This document shows positions 479 to 38,235 of a stretch of DNA of 38,235 nucleotides, one piece after another (position 1 is the stretch's first letter; each line of letters starts with the position of its first letter). A program made the translations under genes and the position numbers. Source of the stretch: Dehalococcoidia bacterium. GTDB taxonomy: Bacteria; Chloroflexota; Dehalococcoidia; GIF9; AB-539-J10. The notes beneath the pieces were generated by a model. The model saw only the letters and a list, made by a program, of their open reading frames with translations. It ran no database searches and was not told the origin of the DNA. The stretch lies in contig JBKHJJ010000001.1 in NCBI GenBank assembly GCA_046538185.1, forward strand, positions 1 through 38,235, given 5' to 3'.

Positions 479-1021
479 TCAGCGATAGTCCCATCGACCA
501 GAACGTAGCAGACGAATCCTTTGAGTCCTGTGCTCCTGAACCCAGAGCTTTTGTCGCTGTCTGGGGGGGATACCTTTGTTAGCGGAATCATGGTGATTGG
601 GACAAAGAACTAAGAGATTCCAAACAGTGTTTGTGCCACCTTCGTGCCTAGGTTTTATATGGTGGATTTCTAGGTTACCGGTTTTGCCGCAAGTTGGGTC
701 TTCACACCTATTTCCCGTGTAGTGTATGAACAAGGCTCTTTCAGATGATGTTAAGTCTGGGGCTTTCGGGAACGTAGTATGCTGTGAGGGATTGCCGGAT
801 GCAGAAAGCCAATAGTAAGCCTTCTTGGCGAAGGTTGTGAATGCTGCCGGTCCTTGCCTCTTGTAAGCGAGGTACGATAGCAAGGCAATGATTATGAGAG
901 CAATGGCTATCGCCACCCATATTATATGTGTTGGAACAAGAGCCCAGATAATGGCCCCGAGGATAAATGCAATTACTATAACTTGAGCCCAACGTGGGAG
1001 TCGGTTGCTGGTCTTTGCCAT
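479..1021 (-). CDS. Membrane-anchored HNH endonuclease (two N-terminal TM helices plus C-terminal HNH)
   Basis: 180-aa ORF. Hydrophobic helices WAQVIVIAFILGAIIWALV and IIWVAIAIALIIIALLSYLAY. C-terminal motif CEDPTCGKTGNLEIHHIKPRHEGGTNTVWNLLVLCPNHH fits the HNH C..C...HH...N...C..HH pattern. Confidence 0.8.
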   Translation of the reverse strand: MAKTSNRLPRWAQVIVIAFILGAIIWALVPTHIIWVAIAIALIIIALLSYLAYKRQGPAAFTTFAKKAYYWLSASGNPSQHTTFPKAPDLTSSERALFIHYTGNRCEDPTCGKTGNLEIHHIKPRHEGGTNTVWNLLVLCPNHHDSANKGIPPRQRQKLWVQEHRTQRIRLLRSGRWDYR

Positions 1022-2790: not shown

Positions 2791-5700
2791 GTGTGTACAC
2801 ACCACAATGGGCAAAGAGTATTCGGTTTCCTAGTTACTGTTATCCTTTCACTATCCCTCTTGTCAGGCGGCCTTCTATTCAGCGCCCATGGCAAGACCGC
2901 TTCCGCTGCCGACACTGTCTTCTACGACTTTGTCTCCCAGGCTGCCAGCGCGTCCTGGTCCAGCGGCGCCGGCAGCCTGCCCTTCCCCGGCAGCGATACC
3001 GACAGCCGTGGGTTCGCCCTTTACAGGGATGACTGTCATCTTGAGGACGATAGCACCTGGGCAAGAGTTCTGGAAACTCACCCGCAGTGGGTAAGTGACG
3101 GCTGGATAATGGGTGTGTATCCCGAGATGACAGTTGCCTCCGGCGCCGAGCTCAAAATCACCGTGGGATTTTTCAAAGGGGCTGCCGAAAGCGATGGCGT
3201 AACCTTTGAGGTTAAGTTTGAAGAGTTTCTCGGTCTGAATGTGGCGCCCAAAATCCATTCTATTCTCAGCCATAAAGCAACCTACGATGGTGAGCTCGAC
3301 TCTATGACCACGGATTTAGAATCTGTGGAGGGCAAAACAGGTAACTTCGTCTTGTATGCTAACGCCGGACAGGACTCCGGCCAGGACTGGGCAGCCTGGG
3401 CTGAGGCGAAGATTGAAGTAGAGGCTGACACAACTCCACCAATCGTCACAATAGGCCATTCCCCCTCAGAGGTCACTACCGCTGACATTGTCACTTTCAC
3501 AGCTCAGGCAGAAGATGATAGCAGCGTCCTCAATATGCTGATTTTTGTAGACGGTCAGCAGGTCAAGGCGTGTGCTCCTCCGAGCCAAAAGACCGATGGC
3601 CAAGGAGGAACATACTGGGAATGCGTTTACACCGGCGGACCCTATGACGAAGGCACGCTAACTTATCAGGCCGAGGCTCTTGACAGCTATCAGAATCGCG
3701 GTGTCTCCAGTGAGGGAAGCGTTGATGTTACTGTCTCCATTACTCCGGTCCAACCACCGCTCACAGCCTGTTTGTTCTCCATTTCTGGCACCATCCACGA
3801 TTTCTGGCATGACTCAGCAACGCTTAAGATTGAGATATGCGAGGCTGAAACGATCATAGCCCAAATAGGCGGCAAAACAGTGCCGGTAACAACCTGTAAG
3901 GAAGGGGGCCGCGTCTGGCGTGTTGATACAAACAGGCTGTTCTCTGGCGATCTACCCGGTCCCGATTTGACCTATCGGGCGGGCCGTCTTTGTCCCGGAA
4001 CATACATTGTCACTCCCGTCTATCAACCGGGTGTGGACCTTTGCGAGTGGCAGGGTAGCTGGCAGACCGCCAAGGGGCAGGTAGTCAGAATTGAAGATGC
4101 CAACGCTGAAGGTTTCGATTTTGCCTTCGAACCGGAGGACTCGAGTGCCCCGCGGATCAGCAGCATAACGGCTGAGCCCGAACACCCGGAGCTCGGCGAA
4201 GATGTGGTCATTACCATTCTGACCCAGGACGATGGGGAGATATCCGCCATCTGGGAAAAGACGGATACGGTATTTGTAGACGGTTCGTTTCACGCTGGCC
4301 ACTGGCACAGCTTGACCGTAAGCCCCGGGATGCTGGGCAGCACGGCTGGGGCTCAGTTCTCACTGACCGACGACCGCATCATGCAGGCCACGGTAAGAGC
4401 CAGGGTATGCGACAGCGGGGGTAACAGCCACATGGCACAAATGACCGTTCAATTCGGCAGCTGTGATGACGGTATCCAGAACCAGGGGGAAACAGGTGTG
4501 GACTGTGGCGGCCCCTGCCCTTCCGAGTGCAAAAACTGCCTGAACGATGCCACAATAGGGGACGGCACTTCGGCTTATTTGTATAGCCCGGACCAGATTG
4601 AGTACGTAAGAGGCTGGGCCCTGGGAGCCGTTTCGGAATATGCCGATGTAATGGGGATAGATCCTTTCGAGCTTGATACCAGTGACGAGTATATTGAAGC
4701 TATTGCCTGGTGGGTACCTACTCATATGGGTTATCGAGGAGATGATATCAATAGACAGGTCCTATGCGATGTAATGGACCTTGATTTTGACATCTGTGAT
4801 TGCGAGCTGTGTGATTTCTGGCAGCCAGCTTACTACATCTTGAACTACAGCGGACGAGCACAAAGTACGGACCCTTCTAAGTGGTTCTTCGGGGACTGCG
4901 ACGACTTCGCTATACTTAGCTCTGCCTTGCTCAGGTCACTGGGAGTAAGCCACAAGTGCATCTTCATTGCCACGCAGCCCGGGCATGCATTTAACATTGT
5001 CAATTATCACAGTAAGCACAGGATATTAGAGCCGCAGAACAGCGCCATTGGTTGCGAAGACTATGTGCCAGAGCTCATTCTCAACGACAAAATAGATTGG
5101 GTCAGCCCCTGGCAGTATACTATGAATTACCCGGGGTGCGAGAACCCAACAGTGTCAGTCACTGGTGGGGGCTTTGGTGCCAAGATGCTGTGGCTCGACT
5201 GGAGCGGCTGGGGAGAATACCCGGCGCTGGCCGTAGGAGACTTCGATAGCGACGGTCGTGACGATATCGCCGCTGTGTATAATGATTGGGATACGCGGGA
5301 TTTTGTTGCTGTTGTTTTCCCATCCACCGGCTCTGGTTTCCAGGCGCCGTCGGCGGCATTGCCTGAACCATATCCATCGCACCCTGGCGTCATGGTCGGT
5401 AATCGTCCCGAGGGCGACTTCATCGTGATCACGGAACACGGATACTCCGGCGGTTTTAGAGAAGCAATAGGAACGATGGCAGCCTGCCCTTCGTCAATAG
5501 TGGGGCATGAGCCAACCAGCGAGACGGACGTTATATGCTTCGGAGATCCGCGAGGGAGTGGCACAGATACTGTAATTGAATTCTCTCGAGGAGATACACA
5601 CAAGGTCAGAGTCTGCCATACGGTCTGGAACGACGCGTTCTGCCCGCGCGATGAACTGCCCCTTGTAGGTGACTTCGATGGCGACGGTTATGACGATGCC

Positions 5701-32226: not shown

Positions 32227-33378
32227 TCAGCTGAGAGTCCAGGTAGCGACATCGCACTGCCCGTATGTGTCGTGGCCCACAGCGACCACGGTGCCGTCGG
32301 ACTTAAGCCCCACCGTGTGCCCATAGCCCGCGGCGACCTGGACTATGTCCGTCCAGTCGTCGACATCGCACTGGCCATAAGTATTGTCGCCCGCGCCGGC
32401 TACAGTGCCGTCGGACTTAAGGATCACCGTGTGCCAGTAGCCTGCGGTGACCTGGATGACGTCCGTCCAGCCGCTGACATTGCGCTGACCGACGGAATCA
32501 TCTCCCAGAGTAACCACTCTGCCGCTGGCCTTGAGGGCAACGGTGTGGTAGCCGCCTGCGGCGACCTGGATGATGTCCGTCCAGGTAGTGACATCGCACT
32601 GCCCGTATGTGTCGTGTCCCACAGCGACCACGGTGCCGTCGGCCTTAAGTCCCAAGGTGTGGTAGCCGCCTGCGGCGACCTGGATGATGTCCGTCCAGTT
32701 GCCGACATTGCACTGCCCATAGTCGTTGGCCCCCACGGTGACCACGGTGCCATCGAATTGAAGACCCAAGGTGTGATAGCTGCCCGTGGCGACCTGGATG
32801 ATGTCCGTCCAGTTGCTGACCTCGCGCTGCCCGTAGTCGTTCCATCCCACGCCGACGACACTGCCGTTGACCCTGAGCGCCATCGTGTGACCATAGCCTG
32901 CAGCGACCTGGATGATGTCCGTCCAGTTGCCGACATCGCACTGCCCGGCGGAGTTGTATCCGGCGGCTACCATGGAGCCGTTGGAATCGAGTCCCACCGT
33001 ATGATAGCCACCTGCCGTGACCATGGGGATGGATTGAGGCCCAAAGGCAAAGTTGGCGGTGATAGAGTAGTTGTCGTCCATGGTGATCTCGGTTGTGGCA
33101 TCATTAACGTCAGCAATGGTACTCACATCGCCACTCCAATCTACGAAGTGGTAACCAGCATCGGGAGTCGCCACCAGGTCGATCACCGTCCCCCGAGCGT
33201 AGGCAGAAATCCCCTCTCCAGGCGTAGCTACCGAGCCTCCAGAGGTACTGGCGACAGTGAGGCCGTACTCAACAACACCACCGCACCCTGGCACAGTGGC
33301 AAGTAATGCTACCGCAACCAGGAATACAGTGGCTGTTGCCGCGCAGCGGTGTCTCCTTGAATCAACTGCTATTTTCAT
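32227..33378 (-). CDS. Lipoprotein: InlB-B-repeat-like domain plus 7 x 38-aa RCC1-like blades (paralog 1)
   Basis: Signal peptide with Cys (LLATVPGC). The domain YGLTVASTSGGSVATPGEGISAYARGTVIDLVATPDAGYHFVDWSGD follows. Then come seven repeats of the form DGTVVAVG.N.YGQC.V..WTDIIQVAAG..HT.GL. Confidence 0.9.
   Translation of the reverse strand: MKIAVDSRRHRCAATATVFLVAVALLATVPGCGGVVEYGLTVASTSGGSVATPGEGISAYARGTVIDLVATPDAGYHFVDWSGDVSTIADVNDATTEITMDDNYSITANFAFGPQSIPMVTAGGYHTVGLDSNGSMVAAGYNSAGQCDVGNWTDIIQVAAGYGHTMALRVNGSVVGVGWNDYGQREVSNWTDIIQVATGSYHTLGLQFDGTVVTVGANDYGQCNVGNWTDIIQVAAGGYHTLGLKADGTVVAVGHDTYGQCDVTTWTDIIQVAAGGYHTVALKASGRVVTLGDDSVGQRNVSGWTDVIQVTAGYWHTVILKSDGTVAGAGDNTYGQCDVDDWTDIVQVAAGYGHTVGLKSDGTVVAVGHDTYGQCDVATWTLS
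32230..33033 (-). repeat. In-frame tandem coding repeats with a 114-nt period (7 units)
   Basis: The exact 43-mer GGTGTGGTAGCCGCCTGCGGCGACCTGGATGATGTCCGTCCAG occurs at 32542-32584 and 32656-32698. Near-identical GACCTGGATGATGTCCGTCCAG cores recur every 111-114 nt. Confidence 0.85.
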
Positions 33379-33485: not shown

Positions 33486-34628
33486 TCAATTCAAATCCCA
33501 ACCGCCGACGTTGCACTGCCAGTAGTAGTTCCATCCCACGGCGACAACAGCGCCGTCGGACTGAAGCCCGGCCGTGTGCAAGCCTCCTGCAGCGACATGG
33601 ACGATGTCCGTCCAGTCGCCCACATCGCACTGCCCGGAGCCATTCGATCCCGCAGCGAGCACGGTGCCGTCGGCCTTAAGCCCCACCGTGTGCCAGCCGC
33701 CTGCGGCGACCTGGACAATGTTCGTCCAACTGCTGACATCGCACTGCCCGGCCGAGTTGTCTCCCACCGCGACCACAGTACCGTCGGCCCTAAGCCCCAC
33801 CGTGTGCCAGTCGCCTGTGGCGACCTGGACCATGTTCGTCCAGTTGCCGATATTGCATTGGCCAGAGGCATCCGATCCCGCAGCGGCCATGGTGCCGTCG
33901 GCTTCAAGCCCCATTGTGTGCGAGCCGCCTGCGGCGACCTGGATGATGTTCGTCCAGCTGCCGACATCACATGCTCCGCAGGTGTTGTTCCCCACGGCAA
34001 CCAGGGTGCCGTCGAATTGAAGCCCTACCGTGTGCCAGTTGCCTGCGGCGACCTGGATAATGTCTGTCCAGTTGCTGACATTGCACTGCCCGGAGACATT
34101 CCATCCCACAGCGACCACCGTTTCATTGTACCCAAGTCCCACCGTGTGCCAGGCACCCGCAGCGACGTGGCTGATATCCATCCAGTCGTCGATATTGCAC
34201 TGCCCGAAGGCGTTCCATCCCACAGCAACCACAGTGCCGTCGGTCTTAAGTCCCACTGTGTGCCTATCGCCTGCAGCCAGGTCGTATTGCTTGACAAAGT
34301 TTGCTGTTATAGAGTAGTCGTTGTTAATCGTGAGGTTTGTTGCGGCGGCATAGACATTGCCAATCGCGCCCACGTCACCAGTCCAGTCGGCAAACTGGTA
34401 GCCAGCATTGGGAGTCGCCACCAGGTTGATCACCATTCCCACAGGATAGGTGAAAGTCCCCTGTCCAGGTGTAGTTACCGATCCTCCATCGGTGCTGGCG
34501 ATACTGAGGCTATAAGAATAAGGAGGCTGAGCACAGCCTGCAATTGCAGCAATGAAGGCTGCCATAACCAGGAAGATGCTGATTCCTCTCACGTAGTGGT
34601 ATTTCCTCAAATTAAGCATTGTGTTCAT
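33486..34628 (-). CDS. Lipoprotein: InlB-B-repeat-like domain plus 7 x 38-aa RCC1-like blades (paralog 2)
   Basis: Canonical lipobox IAGC. The domain YSLSIASTDGGSVTTPGQGTFTYPVGMVINLVATPNAGYQFADWTGD follows. Seven blades are marked by ..HT.GL, GQC.V and WT.I.QVAAG. Confidence 0.9.
   Translation of the reverse strand: MNTMLNLRKYHYVRGISIFLVMAAFIAAIAGCAQPPYSYSLSIASTDGGSVTTPGQGTFTYPVGMVINLVATPNAGYQFADWTGDVGAIGNVYAAATNLTINNDYSITANFVKQYDLAAGDRHTVGLKTDGTVVAVGWNAFGQCNIDDWMDISHVAAGAWHTVGLGYNETVVAVGWNVSGQCNVSNWTDIIQVAAGNWHTVGLQFDGTLVAVGNNTCGACDVGSWTNIIQVAAGGSHTMGLEADGTMAAAGSDASGQCNIGNWTNMVQVATGDWHTVGLRADGTVVAVGDNSAGQCDVSSWTNIVQVAAGGWHTVGLKADGTVLAAGSNGSGQCDVGDWTDIVHVAAGGLHTAGLQSDGAVVAVGWNYYWQCNVGGWDLN
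33489..34286 (-). repeat. In-frame tandem coding repeats with a 114-nt period (7 units)
   Basis: GCGACCTGGA(T/C)NATGT(T/C)CGTCCAG-type cores occur near 33587, 33701, 33815, 33929, 34043 and 34157. Confidence 0.85.
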
Positions 34629-34981
34629 TCTCTCTCCAGATTATTGTAGTTGCCTGCTTCAGTCCAATACAATGCTGTTACTTATGCCAGCTGTCCGGCG
34701 AACTTCAGCAGTTCCATAGCGGATTCGACTGTTCATTTCTACACGTGTATGAAGCTGTCTCCAATACTAATTGAATATAGTCTAAGACCCGTTCGTTTCT
34801 CCGTCAATCACCCATTAGTAGCCGTACTTTCGTACGCCGACCCTGTGTTGCTCCCATTGGCCGAAGCAAGCAAGTACCATAAGGGCCGTATCGGACTCTC
34901 TGGCGGGTTGCCTGAATCATTCAATTGGAGTATGCTTCCTAGTAGAAATAATAACCCGGTCGGTTGGTGTGTTGGTTTACC

Positions 34982-35080
34982 ATGGTTGATCTGGACGACC
35001 TCTTGACTTATCGGCGTTTCGATAGGTCGGCAATGCTTGATCACCTTGAACCAGCAATACGCCGGAAAACTAATTCATAA
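34982..35080 (+). pseudogene. N-terminal relic of a bifunctional SIS-type phosphoglucose/phosphomannose isomerase (PGI/PMI)
   Basis: The ORF runs from ATG 34982 to TAA 35078-35080 and reads MVDLDDLLTYRRFDRSAMLDHLEPAIRRKTNS*. The first 24 or so residues follow the family N-terminus (LDD....y..fD.s.ML.hl). After that the sequence is unrelated and stops. Confidence 0.55.
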
Positions 35081-35100
35081 ATCCAGGAGAAATATGGGGA

Positions 35101-35676
35101 ATGGAAACGGAAATTCGGTATCTGAATGATATGAAGATGGTTCTTTATGATAAGGCATGGGCAACAACCGCATCCAACTTCGAGGTTTACTATATGGAGC
35201 GAGGGCTCGAGGAGAAGGATGACTTAAGGTACGACATTACGACAATTCCGCCCAAGATGCTGGGCCAGGAATTCGTAAAAACTAAAGGACATTACCACAT
35301 CGGGGCATTTCAAGAACTGTATATTGTTCTGGAGGGAAAAGGAATCTTCTTGATGCAAAAGAAAGGAGAGGGGAAAATCCAGGACGTTTACTATGTAGAG
35401 GCAAAAAAGGGAGAGTGTGTTCTAGTTCCCTCTTTCTATGGACATGTGACAATCAATCCCGCTTCAAAAACCTTGAAAATGGGAAATTGGATATCAAAAC
35501 AATATAAAGCTGATTATGAAAGTATTGCAGAAAAAGGGGGATTTGCGTATTACTACACGCAAGCTGGGTGGGTCAAAAATGGGAATTATGAACAAGTTCC
35601 TGAACTTCGTTCTGAAATGCCACTGGAATCAATGCCGAGAAATCTGGATTTCTTGGAAGGGCCTAAGAGCAAGTAG
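35101..35676 (+). CDS. Cupin-type glucose-6-phosphate isomerase (archaeal cPGI family)
   Basis: RYLNDMKMVLYDKAW, GQEFVKTKGHYH, ELYIVLEGKGIFLMQ, GECVLVPSFYGHVTIN and DYESIAEKGGF line up with the Pyrococcus-type cPGI as I remember it. My hand count over 35101-35400 gives about 43% G+C, lower than the neighbours. Confidence 0.9.
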   Translation: METEIRYLNDMKMVLYDKAWATTASNFEVYYMERGLEEKDDLRYDITTIPPKMLGQEFVKTKGHYHIGAFQELYIVLEGKGIFLMQKKGEGKIQDVYYVEAKKGECVLVPSFYGHVTINPASKTLKMGNWISKQYKADYESIAEKGGFAYYYTQAGWVKNGNYEQVPELRSEMPLESMPRNLDFLEGPKSK

Positions 35677-35692
35677 AAGGGACGTTATTCCC

Positions 35693-35925
35693 CACTGGCG
35701 GCCGACGACGATGACTTCCGCTGAACTGCTGGCCAAGTCGGCAGTCGGTCATGAATTTGCTGAGACCGGAGCAGAAAGCACGCTGGCTTAGGTGCTCGGT
35801 CTGGTTCTCCTGGTGATTATTGCATTTTCTATCTGGCAATGCTGAACGAAGTTGACCCCGCATCCGTAGATGCGATAAACTTCGTGAAGCAGTACCTCTC
35901 CCAGTCCGGTATTCCCCGTGACTAG
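35693..35925 (+). pseudogene. C-terminal relic of the same SIS-type PGI/PMI gene
   Basis: HWRPTTMTSAELLAKSAVGHEFAETGAESTLA is interrupted by an in-frame TAG at 35789-35791. VLGLVLL follows, then a frameshift from loss of one G at 35812-35813. The rest reads GDYCIFYLAMLNEVDPASVDAINFVKQYLSQSGIPRD* (TAG 35923-35925). This matches the family C-terminus (lgDy.S.YLA.l.gvDP.pV..I..lK..L). Confidence 0.6.
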
Positions 35926-35998
35926 GGCGGAGTGAAAGGTTATGGTTGGTCGGGCAGATGTGTGGGCAAGTCAGTGAGTATAGTAGGGGGATGGGTGG

Positions 35999-37069
35999 AT
36001 GAAAGCTTTGGTCCTGGCTGCTGGCAAAGGCACAAGACTCAAGCCACTAACTAATACTGTGCCGAAGCACCTCTTGCCAGTGGGCGCTAAGCCGATTCTG
36101 TTCCATGTCCTGGACTACATAATAGAGGCCGGGATCAAAGATATCGGCATTGTCATATCGCCGGACTCAGGACCCTACATAGAAGAAGCCGTGGGGGATG
36201 GGAAGCAGTGGGGAGCAAGCATTACCTTCATCTCTCAACGTGAACCGCTGGGACTTGCACATGCAGTCAAAGTGGCTCAGGACTTCCTGGGCGGTTCACC
36301 TTTTCTCATGTTCCTGGGCGACAACCTCATCCAGGGGGGAGTTAAGGACTTTCTGGAAGAGTTCCAGGCTTCTGACTCCGACGCCAGCATCCTCCTCAAG
36401 GAAGTAACTGACCCCAGGGCTTTCGGCGTAGCTGAGCTTGACTCATCGGGAAAGGTGATACATATGGTGGAAAAACCCAAGGAACCCAGGAGCAACCTGG
36501 CCATAATCGGCGTTTATCTTTTCACACCCGAGATTCACAAAGCTATAGCCCAGACCAAGCCTTCCTGGAGGGGGGAACTGGAGATAACCGACGCTATCCA
36601 GAAGCTCCTGGAGATGGGAAAGGAGATCAGAAGCCATGTGCTCCAGGGCTGGTGGCTGGACATCGGCAGTAATGACGGGCTAATCGAGGCTAATCGTCTG
36701 GTTCTTGACACCTTTTTGAGTCGGAGCATCAGAGGAAAGACAGATTTACAGAGCCGGATCGAGGGCAGAGTCCAAATTGAGGAAGGAACAGAGCTGGAAA
36801 ACAGCAGTATTCAGGGTCCGGCGGTTATTGGGGCGAATTGCCGCATAACAGGTTCCGTCATCAAGCCTTTCACCAACATCAGGGCCGGGACGGTGGTCCG
36901 GGACTCATCGCTGGAGCGTTCGGTAATACTGGACAATTGCCAGATCTTGGGAATCAAGCACTTGACTGATAGTGTGATTGGTAGAAATACGGTACTAGCT
37001 GGACAGGGGAAGAGTCCCGAGAAGCTGAGGCTGTTCATAGGTGATGATTGTACAGTGGAATTGGAGTAG
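35999..37069 (+). CDS. Sugar-1-phosphate nucleotidyltransferase, long form with C-terminal left-handed beta-helix
   Basis: MKALVLAAGKGTRLKPLTNTVPKHLLPV is the G.G.R signature. Also FLGDN, VEKPKEP and hexapeptide-like repeats at the C-terminus. 356 aa, like the archaeal-type glucose-1-phosphate thymidylyl/uridylyltransferases. Confidence 0.9.
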   Translation: MKALVLAAGKGTRLKPLTNTVPKHLLPVGAKPILFHVLDYIIEAGIKDIGIVISPDSGPYIEEAVGDGKQWGASITFISQREPLGLAHAVKVAQDFLGGSPFLMFLGDNLIQGGVKDFLEEFQASDSDASILLKEVTDPRAFGVAELDSSGKVIHMVEKPKEPRSNLAIIGVYLFTPEIHKAIAQTKPSWRGELEITDAIQKLLEMGKEIRSHVLQGWWLDIGSNDGLIEANRLVLDTFLSRSIRGKTDLQSRIEGRVQIEEGTELENSSIQGPAVIGANCRITGSVIKPFTNIRAGTVVRDSSLERSVILDNCQILGIKHLTDSVIGRNTVLAGQGKSPEKLRLFIGDDCTVELE

Positions 37070-37075
37070 AGGATA

Positions 37076-38235
37076 ATGCAGAGGGTGTTAATTGTCTCAA
37101 ATAGGCTACCTATCACGATTCAGGAGAGGAAAGGCGAACTACACGTTGAACGCAGCGTAGGTGGCCTGGCCACGGGACTGAGCTCATGGTACAGGTCGTT
37201 CGATAGCATCTGGATAGGATGGGCGGGGGTGGGGCGGAAGAAAATCAAGAAGGAAAAGGACGTAATGGCCAGACTGGAATCTGAAAACTGCTACCCCGTT
37301 GCTCTTTCACAGGAAGATGTCGAAGCCTACTACCAGGGGTTCTGCAACAAGACTATCTGGCCTCTCTTTCACTACTTCCCCTTCGACGCAGAGTACAGCG
37401 AAGAGTTCTGGGCAGCTTATGAACGGGTCAACACGGCCTTCGCCAATGTAGTGGCCGGTATTGCCAAACCTAACGATATTGTGTGGGTACACGATTATCA
37501 CTTAATGCTTCTCCCCGGCCTCTTGAGAGAAAGGTTGCCAAAGGCAACAGTGGGCTTCTTCCTCCACATCCCTTTTCCATCTTCTGAAATATTTCGCCTG
37601 TTACCGTGGCGTGACCGTATTCTGGAAGGGCTACTGGGTGCAGACCTGATAGGTTTTCACACCTATGACTACACGCGGCACTTTCTGCATAGCGTGCGTC
37701 TTCTATTGGGCTACGAAGCCGACATGGGACAGATCACCGTGGCAGATCGAGTGGTGAAGGCGGACACGTTTCCGATGGGCATAAACTACGAGCGATACTC
37801 CAGCGTTGACCAGGACCCGAAAGCACAGGCAGAGAGAAAGAGGTTACGTAGGAAACTGGCAGATTTTCGGGTAATTCTCTCGGTGGACCGTCTGGACTAC
37901 ACCAAAGGGATCCCCCAGCGTCTGCGGGCCTTCAGTGTATTTTTGGATCGGAACCCAAGCTTCAAGGGGAAAGTGGTTCTTGTTCTGCTGGTAGTGCCTT
38001 CGCGCACAAGAGTGGAGCAGTACATGCGATTGAAGAGGCAGCTGGATGGGCTTGTCGGCGAAATCAACGGCAAGCATGGAAACATAGGCTGGATGCCGGT
38101 CTGGTACCTGTACCGCACATTACCCTTTCACTCGCTAGCCGCCCTTTACAGCCTGGCCGATGTTGCCCTGGTCACCCCTCTCAGAGACGGGATGAACCTG
38201 GTAGCCAAAGAGTATATGGCGGCTAAGACGGACGG
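37076..38235 (+). CDS. otsA: Trehalose-6-phosphate synthase (GT20), 5' part; continues beyond the window
   Basis: Translated by hand, since it has no stop in the window and is absent from the ORF track. MQRVLIVSNRLPI..., NKTIWPLFHYF, VWVHDYHLMLLP, FFLHIPFPSSEIFR, IGFHTYDYTRHF, LSVDRLDYTKGI, LVTPLRDGMNLVAKEY. Confidence 0.9.
   Translation, partial: MQRVLIVSNRLPITIQERKGELHVERSVGGLATGLSSWYRSFDSIWIGWAGVGRKKIKKEKDVMARLESENCYPVALSQEDVEAYYQGFCNKTIWPLFHYFPFDAEYSEEFWAAYERVNTAFANVVAGIAKPNDIVWVHDYHLMLLPGLLRERLPKATVGFFLHIPFPSSEIFRLLPWRDRILEGLLGADLIGFHTYDYTRHFLHSVRLLLGYEADMGQITVADRVVKADTFPMGINYERYSSVDQDPKAQAERKRLRRKLADFRVILSVDRLDYTKGIPQRLRAFSVFLDRNPSFKGKVVLVLLVVPSRTRVEQYMRLKRQLDGLVGEINGKHGNIGWMPVWYLYRTLPFHSLAALYSLADVALVTPLRDGMNLVAKEYMAAKTD

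Follow-up and report, generated by a model that had tools for sequence, protein, structure and literature searches.

Introduction

Non-orthologous gene displacement and displacement in situ within conserved operons have reportedly been described by Koonin, Mushegian and Bork in 1996 and by Omelchenko et al. in 2003 (Genome Biol 4:R55). In displacement in situ, a gene of a conserved cluster gives way, at its own position, to a gene that was acquired laterally and serves the same reaction; the neighbouring genes as well as the regulation are kept. Here, we study a locus of this likeness within 38,235 nucleotides (nt) of DNA from a Dehalococcoidia bacterium (contig JBKHJJ010000001.1), in the following called the window, i.e., always the full stretch. 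At this locus, an intact gene for a cupin-type phosphoglucose isomerase (PGI) lies between the two ends of a dead SIS-type gene for a bifunctional phosphoglucose/phosphomannose isomerase (PGI/PMI; gene pgi/pmi).

The closest described proteins belong to two families. Cupin-type PGIs (cPGIs) are convergent with the SIS-type PGIs and show a patchy transfer to bacteria (PMC12525153, PMC7304191). Their archaeal representatives (PF06560; Pyrococcus furiosus, Thermococcus litoralis; structures 1QXJ, 1X7N, 1J3P) have a His/His/Glu/His metal site. For the P. furiosus enzyme (PfPGI), the metal ligands are His88, His90, Glu97 and His136, and Tyr152 as well as His158 are implicated in proton exchange (PMC6627849). 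The displaced gene is a member of the bifunctional PGI/PMI family (TIGR02128/PRK08674), which is known from the enzymes of Aeropyrum, Thermoplasma and Pyrobaculum.

A related layout is known from the sequential displacement of effector genes, with orphan remnants, in type VI secretion system (T6SS) clusters of Vibrio cholerae and from homology-facilitated illegitimate recombination (PMC5361080, PMC3240628). There, a homology anchor on one side is combined with an illegitimate join on the other, and stumps of the former gene are left behind.

Results

Relics of the resident gene

We consider it very probable that the resident pgi/pmi was displaced in situ by the non-homologous cupin-type PGI gene. 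The coordinates of the respective features are collected in Table 1; relatives' contigs are referred to by L-numbers.

The first-pass annotation of the window had read the 32-codon open reading frame (ORF) at 34982-35080 (translation MVDLDDLLTYRRFDRSAMLDHLEPAIRRKTNS, up to its stop) as beginning like a PGI/PMI. This is correct for its first 22 codons (34982-35047), of which 15/22 are identical to the N-terminus of the PGI/PMI encoded in L013 (tblastn E=7e-7, small database). The nucleotide homology of this N-terminal relic (N-relic) to intact loci furthermore runs on upstream into the promoter region (blastn). The 32 residues alone gave no Pfam or NCBIfam match, their length being too short to score. 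Since the ORF is too short for profiles, the identity of the N-relic is settled by its intact relatives.

The C-terminal relic (C-relic) had been placed at 35693-35925. Its family assignment stands, i.e., the repaired relic matches PF10432 (bact-PGI_C; positions 93-150/151, E=9e-9) and the PGI/PMI model NF006425 (positions 293-355/358, E=6e-12) and is 81-84% identical to L013 at the amino-acid level in two tblastn segments. Its start had to be moved: the right-hand PGI/PMI homology begins only near 35713-35720 (codon ~288-290), and the DNA from 35677 to ~35715 is a trailer that belongs to the cupin gene. Likewise, the initial estimate of about 230 missing codons was too low, since the actual gap is ~265 codons wide (23 to ~288).

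Both reported lesions of the C-relic are present. The first is an in-frame TAG at 35789-35791, where L002 and the intact genes have CAG. The second is a frameshift by loss of one G (GGG to GG at 35812-35813), for which L002 and the intact genes have GGG. L024, which is the nearest relative (~97% nt identity) and is preceded by the same RCC1-like gene, carries the TAG but retains the third G. That is, the TAG is common to the window and L024, the G loss is seen in the window alone, and the order of events is thus displacement, TAG and finally G loss. The Logan assembly of SRR21542050 (L001) is 100% identical to positions 34734-36039 of the window (1306 nt), such that both lesions recur in the output of a second assembler, which probably worked on the same reads.

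When the C-relic was used for a profile search, all matches were gene-called fragments of 28-104 amino acids (aa), with no full-length PGI/PMI among them. We rejected this list as evidence of a small-protein family, given that some of the fragments derive from intact genes that are broken or gapped (L022).

Intact state in relatives and the probably inherited promoter

Next to the relics, the argument is carried by relatives in which the resident gene is still intact. Using the downstream nucleotidyltransferase, we searched a set in which each species is represented by one genome and identified five Dehalococcoidia contigs from metagenome-assembled genomes (MAGs) with the same gene order. An intact pgi/pmi encoding 354-359 aa is found immediately upstream of rmlA_long and otsAB in 4/5 MAGs (L013, L014, L015, L017), and the fifth (L016) shows the relic-cupin-relic layout of the window. 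The PGI/PMI of L013 exceeds the cut-offs of both NF006426 (352.6 bits) and TIGR02128 (252 bits). This is the arrangement that had been expected for related genomes, namely an intact pgi/pmi next to the nucleotidyltransferase-otsA pair, and it bears out the proposal that an analogous enzyme replaced the resident gene at its own locus. Since the downstream genes are of the rmlA_long type and otsAB, the displaced pgi/pmi headed a sugar-nucleotide and trehalose cluster.

With regard to regulation, the promoter had been suggested to be inherited from the former gene. In an alignment, the element TTGCCT-17-TATGCT is conserved in the intact loci L013, L014 and L017 as well as in all cupin-state loci, even those without an N-relic. 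The 5' untranslated region (5'UTR) is likewise kept in intact and cupin states; a 17-nt segment of it that is found in a large clade of cupin-state loci is missing in the window, L013 and L014. The suggestion is thus supported by conservation, and transcription of the cupin gene most likely starts from the former pgi/pmi promoter. The element agrees with 8/12 consensus positions, just below the cut-off of our consensus scan (9), and was therefore not listed by it.

A second promoter-like site within the C-relic, TTGACC-18-TAAACT, is a candidate promoter for rmlA_long and otsAB. Conservation of its TTGACC extends over the distinct sequences that we aligned and examined, and no locus that still has the downstream nucleotidyltransferase has lost the final ~100 nt of pgi/pmi. 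The cause of the TTGACC conservation is ambiguous because the same bases encode a conserved EVDP...DAINF motif.

The incoming cupin gene

The middle gene had been described as an intact cupin PGI gene, which is confirmed by its protein. It matches PF06560 (GPI) with 117.5 bits (cut-off 20.7; E=5e-34) over model positions 6-181/182 and the solved archaeal cPGIs with E-values from 5e-16 to 4e-9 (1J3P E=5e-16, 1QXJ E=6e-14). All four metal ligands of PfPGI are kept, i.e., His88, His90, Glu97 and His136 align to H64, H66, E72 and H115 of the window protein. Among 37 distinct relatives, the diversity at codon positions 1/2/3 is 0.070/0.058/0.157 and therefore indicates purifying selection on the cupin gene. 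Family membership and the conserved metal ligands together strongly suggest that the protein has PGI activity.

The gene brings its own translation signals. A ribosome-binding site (AGGAG, 35085-35089) is located inside the leader upstream of the gene, into which the stop of the upstream ORF (TAA, 35078-35080) also falls. In relatives, the cupin protein begins two codons further upstream (MGLETEIRY..). An extra G in the window and in L024 throws the respective ATG at 35094 out of frame, and the window cupin therefore starts at 35101, 11 nt past AGGAG. A consensus scan listed no terminator 3' of the cupin gene, and no Rfam RNA family was found within 34500-36200.

A foreign origin had been proposed based on a low content of guanine and cytosine (G+C), and we arrive at the same view. 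The cupin gene has 41.8% G+C (44.8% at third codon positions, GC3) compared to 52.5% for the window and a GC3 of 55-63% for its housekeeping genes. In every relative, the cupin G+C is within 38-42%, compared to about 50% otherwise. For L020, where two further genes follow the cupin gene (see below), we find 38.7% for the cupin, 41.8% for the HAD and 40.8% for the 290-aa gene vs. ~50-53% for host genes. The protein's own cluster carries the NCBI name Dehalococcoidia. The nearest outside homologues are 57-65% identical and stem from genomes with 31-37% G+C, which are Patescibacteria or Nealsonbacteria where named. The incoming gene appears to be foreign; we infer its donor from the nearest homologues and the composition only.

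In distant low-G+C loci (L068, L069, L071, L073, L075, L076 and others), a short (~230 aa) nucleotidyltransferase is typically encoded directly 3' of the cupin gene. Cupin and nucleotidyltransferase genes thus also pair up elsewhere, independently of the locus in Dehalococcoidia. In L075, an SIS PGI/PMI-like gene (31% identity) is located immediately upstream of the cupin gene. In the distant donor-like loci, no homologue of the HAD or 290-aa gene was found next to the cupin.

Junctions, long form and erosion

Relatives of the cupin protein with 78-96% identity are numerous in metagenomes. We read 44 close loci from a metagenome scan and, in addition, loci from exact protein look-ups. More than 40 metagenome and MAG loci from many independent samples share the relic-cupin architecture and the junction.

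The left junction follows directly after ..CACCT (between 35046 and 35047) and is identical in every locus that retains the N-relic, i.e., in the window, L024, L007, L016, L025 and ~25 further loci (~30 in total). About half of the loci contain the N-relic. Between junction and cupin gene lies a leader of ~54 nt with its own Shine-Dalgarno sequence. On the other side, ~40-45 nt past the cupin stop are common to all forms. In the long form, this trailer is the start of the spacer between the cupin and the HAD gene.

With regard to the DNA that follows, four forms can be distinguished. In the long form (L020, L021, L063, L064; also L037, where it is cut by the contig end), the cupin gene is followed by a gene for a HAD-IIB phosphatase, a 290-aa gene and PGI/PMI codons 238-358. 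In the short form, codons ~285-358 follow directly and the junction is located between two GCTTC pentamers. A shorter form with only degenerate codons ~320-358 is found in most loci that retain the nucleotidyltransferase gene. Finally, several loci have no C-relic, and their downstream genes are replaced by subtilase or mfd.

The right junction of the window (GGCTTCC vs. GGCTACC in the gene) is 13 nt deeper in the relic than that of the common short form and may represent a further deletion or a separate one. We rejected the common trailer and junction as proof of one deletion shared with the large clade, since the window uses a different near-repeat; its short form may be an independent deletion from the long form.

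As a result, the displacement is neither private to the window nor recent, and the window copy is shortened and further decayed. The locus had been presented as a displacement caught with both scars still visible. Both stumps are indeed readable, but they record an old event common to dozens of loci rather than a fresh one.

Further observations concern the inserts themselves. The HAD-IIB protein of the long form (L020:1560-3112; also L063, L064, L037) reaches 89 bits on TIGR01484, below the cut-offs of specific phosphatases, and the 290-aa protein has a hydrophobic C-terminus. Neither this protein nor the 69-aa ORF of L023 has a Pfam or NCBIfam match. In L023 (GCA_049586675.1, JBAVCL010000040.1; 5340-6230), the same pgi/pmi has lost its interior to another insert. 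Here, the native promoter and codons 1-~19 lead into the unrelated 69-aa ORF, which has a promoter-like site of its own (TTGACA-17-TATTAT), and PGI/PMI codons 297-358 come after it. Neither the cupin nor the flavoprotein gene is present at this locus.

L025 carries, at 2974-3645 (minus strand), look-alikes of a PIN-domain (VapC-like) toxin and an AbrB/MazE-like antitoxin, judged by reading the translations. The pair separates the flavoprotein gene from the pgi/pmi promoter. About 1 kb of similar extra DNA is found in L026-L029, L045 and L057. At this place, L039 has another gene, which encodes a secreted-looking protein of 249 aa and lies between two copies of the promoter element.

Probable spread between lineages

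We compared a tree of the flanking genes with a tree of the cupin gene. The former is a bootstrapped neighbour-joining tree of rmlA_long and the first 386 codons of otsA (200 replicates). Here, the window groups with the intact-state locus L013 (200/200). The large cupin-state group is monophyletic (200/200) and joins the intact-state locus L014 (186/200), and the window and the large cupin clade are never united (0/200). The tree of the cupin gene unites the large clade to the exclusion of the window in only 44/200 replicates; most often, the window joins L034 or L028. The relics of the window, the indel state of its 5'UTR and its intergenic spacer resemble L013 over their whole length.

A direct example of a cassette that would have landed in another intact pgi/pmi, scars included, is provided by L059. 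Its order is the resident promoter with pgi/pmi codons 1-110 (frameshifted), the flavoprotein gene (other strand), a second promoter, the N-relic, the cupin gene and the C-relic. The two promoter/N-terminal copies differ at ~9% of positions (hand count) and are thus not the result of a recent internal duplication.

The relics themselves vary like coding sequence. For C-relic codons 285-358 of five diverged loci, variable sites are distributed 19/8/35 over codon positions 1/2/3 (p=4e-6), and the N-relic shows diversities of 0.083/0.066/0.193 among 18 distinct sequences. Such codon-structured variation is unexpected from long neutral decay after one event. Most simply, these findings together would be explained by a repeated entry of the cassette into genomes with a functional pgi/pmi, via recombination of the flanking DNA; other options are selection on the small ORFs or gene conversion.

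Taken for itself, a spread of the scarred allele between lineages by recombination seems to us somewhat more probable than its absence. More tentatively, and with rather less than even confidence, the scarred cassette can be seen as a self-propagating allele, whose stumps and flanks would let it recombine into genomes with intact pgi/pmi and displace the gene anew. If so, the relics would be a vehicle of spread as well as fossils, and the grouping of the window with L013 in the flank tree, the coding-like variation of the relics and the double state of L059 would be explained together.

Beside these data, we observed two different C-relics in tandem after the cupin gene in L025 (4616-5020) and L026, i.e., codons 285-358 plus spacer followed by degenerate codons ~320-358 plus spacer. 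This looks like a recombinant of two cupin-state alleles. A gene for a ComEC-type DNA-uptake channel (DUF4131, Competence and Lactamase_B domains) is located a few genes away in L002, L005, L023 and L059, which is circumstantial support for natural transformation in the group.

Opposing evidence and alternative explanations

Several points weigh against a displacement with subsequent spread, and we give them here along with the alternatives they favour.

First, there may have been one ancient displacement followed by vertical descent only. The window allele would then never have been transferred, and the intact pgi/pmi of the L013 and L014 lineages would have been regained, i.e., re-imported through the relic arms. 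In the cupin gene, the window and the large clade differ by a mean of 0.136, which is indeed about what the flanks predict, with a cupin/flank distance ratio of 0.66 compared to 0.70 within the clade. Timing alone thus shows no late transfer, and we discarded such distances as a means to tell transfer from vertical descent since they do not discriminate. The L013-like relics of the window also fit arms of shared descent, and our trees are distance-based neighbour-joining trees of short genes. On the other hand, vertical descent needs at least two independent restorations (L013, L014) where one extra transfer suffices, and the cupin tree tends to nest the window within the large clade. Furthermore, L059 demonstrates that the cassette can enter a genome with an intact gene, and the codon-structured relic diversity argues against long neutral decay. 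In view of these data, we regard purely vertical descent as unlikely, if the most serious of the alternatives.

Second, the relics might be alive. In this case, the N-terminal ORF would be a translated leader that, e.g., couples translation into the cupin gene, and relatives would keep the C-terminal fragment as a small protein under selection. In addition to the diversity pattern given above, the N-relic ORF (118 nt) is without indels in the 18 distinct sequences and open in most of them. The C-relic is mostly open in the five diverged loci (the stop codon at its end is lost in L002), and gene callers report ORFs of 66-104 aa for it in many metagenomes. The same diversity pattern is, however, expected if the arms recently belonged to functional genes. 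The C-relic of the window has a stop and a frameshift, several stops interrupt the N-relic of L016 and L066, the N-relic is gone from roughly half of the cupin loci, and the C-relic is wholly or mostly deleted in many. We thus find living relics improbable.

Third, the cupin gene may not be a functional replacement at all. That is, an insertion could have hit a dispensable or dead pgi/pmi, with the cupin protein acting as another sugar or sugar-phosphate isomerase and PGI being supplied from elsewhere. The equivalents of PfPGI Tyr152 and His158 are I131 and A137 in the window protein (phmmer alignment, weak in the C-terminal part), which makes the mechanism or specificity, rather than the family assignment, less certain. 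The identity to the solved archaeal cPGIs is low, the PGI activity of the bacterial subfamily is itself deduced, and a literature search found no enzyme assay of any bacterial-subfamily member. The distant locus L075 has its SIS PGI/PMI-like gene right beside the cupin gene. No other pgi is found in the window, which covers 38 kb of the genome; another may exist elsewhere in it.

Against such a dispensable insertion stand the PF06560 match over nearly the whole model and the four kept metal ligands. The cupin gene is under purifying selection and has been retained behind the old promoter in dozens of loci despite the loss of relics or neighbours. In addition, the cupin-type is the sole PGI in some genomes of the Candidate Phyla Radiation (CPR), and few of these genomes carry more than one PGI type (PMC7304191). 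We therefore consider it quite improbable that the cupin gene is no replacement.

Finally, a chimeric join of unrelated reads, which can in principle occur in metagenome assemblies and for which we found no indication, is practically negligible given the identical 1306 nt from a second assembler and the more than 40 contigs, drawn from many independent samples and MAGs, that have this architecture and junction in common.

Locus layout and neighbouring genes

Table 1: Features of the displacement locus and their positions in the window.
Feature	Position	Strand	Evidence or remark
Native promoter-like element of pgi/pmi	TTGCCT 34908-34913, 17-nt spacer, TATGCT 34931-34936	+	conserved in both states
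Native 5'UTR of former pgi/pmi	34937-34981	+	homologous to DNA upstream of intact genes
N-terminal relic, PGI/PMI codons 1-22	34982-35047	+	start of 32-codon upstream ORF 34982-35080
Leader acquired with the cupin gene	35047-35100	+	absent in intact genes, present in all N-relic-bearing cupin loci
Cupin-type phosphoglucose isomerase gene, intact, 191 aa	35101-35676	+	PF06560, PDB cPGI matches, metal ligands
Trailer acquired with the cupin gene	35677-35715	+	common to long forms L020, L063 and all short forms
C-terminal relic, PGI/PMI codons ~289-358 and native stop	~35716-35925	+	PF10432, NF006425; TAG and 1-nt deletion
Promoter-like site inside C-relic, TTGACC-18-TAAACT	35852-35881	+	consensus scan
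Glucose-1-phosphate nucleotidylyltransferase, rmlA_long type, first downstream gene	35999-37069	+	TIGR01208
Bifunctional trehalose-6-phosphate synthase/phosphatase (otsAB), 5' part, gene truncated by window end	37076-38235	+	93% identical to L013 OtsAB

The rmlA_long gene reaches 454 bits on TIGR01208 (cut-off 320) and is syntenic in all intact-state and most cupin-state loci. For otsAB, the L013 protein scores 1028 bits on NF011071. A TreT-like gene is encoded on the strand opposite to the pgi/pmi-rmlA_long-otsAB cluster, and the window neighbours are housekeeping genes, i.e., an aspartyl-tRNA synthetase-type gene as well as those of trigger factor, ClpP and MgtE.

Upstream of the locus, two paralogous genes (32227-33378 and 33486-34628, minus strand) encode a divergent InlB B-repeat domain and ~7 RCC1 repeats, with an N-terminal hydrophobic segment judged by eye. 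With 59-60% G+C and a GC3 of 69-71%, their composition is skewed opposite to that of the cupin gene, and the composition of the repeats causes long spurious ORFs on the opposite strand. A related gene is also found further upstream of the intact pgi/pmi in L013. At the other end of the window, a small ORF with an HNH endonuclease domain (479-1021, minus strand; regional G+C 45-47%) may be a mobile or phage-derived remnant unconnected to the displacement.

Discussion

The account that we hold overall, at its core a displacement in situ, appears highly probable to us, with less confidence in its part on spread. In the ancestral state, an SIS-type bifunctional pgi/pmi headed the cluster of pgi/pmi, rmlA_long and otsAB. 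A low-G+C foreign segment with its own ribosome-binding site and a cupin-type PGI gene was then presumably joined into pgi/pmi by illegitimate recombination, which removed the codons after 22. The long form with the additional HAD-IIB phosphatase and 290-aa genes is probably nearer to the original insert. Microhomology-associated deletions subsequently dropped these two extra genes and part of the C-relic.

In the lineage of the window, the TAG came first (with L024), followed by the loss of the single G. The scarred allele has probably been passed among related lineages via flanking homology and would again have replaced intact pgi/pmi genes. Judged by its family and metal ligands, the cupin protein most likely supplies the interconversion of glucose-6-phosphate and fructose-6-phosphate for the cluster and for central metabolism. 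The replacement may, at the same time, have removed the phosphomannose isomerase activity from the sugar-nucleotide/trehalose cluster.

The replacement of an enzyme by an unrelated analogue is usually inferred from patchy gene distributions, whereas its steps are legible in the DNA here. The locus thus provides a concrete and testable model for the scatter of SIS-type and cupin-type PGIs across bacteria, and it suggests an exchange between Patescibacteria-type organisms and Dehalococcoidia. It would be of greater interest still if the recombination-driven spread is true.

Both the phenomenon and the two enzyme families are already known; it is the completeness of the record that is unusual, in which the kept native promoter, microhomology where the later deletions were joined and hints of a secondary spread can also be recognised. 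Compared to the archaeal cPGIs, with which it shares the family match and the metal site, the window protein belongs to a distant bacterial subfamily that is common to Dehalococcoidia and Patescibacteria-type genomes and in which the equivalents of Tyr152 and His158 differ. With regard to the bifunctional PGI/PMI, the relics align to the two ends of the family, but the window keeps only codons 1-22 and ~289-358, such that a functional product is impossible.

The layout of L059 is the same as that known from V. cholerae. There, the cargo is a competition module; here, it is an enzyme of central metabolism that replaces its analogue, and the mechanism is one that we infer. Known displacements in situ, finally, have been deduced from trees and gene order, whereas stumps, junctions, a longer form, the intact state and a graded decay can all be read here in the DNA.

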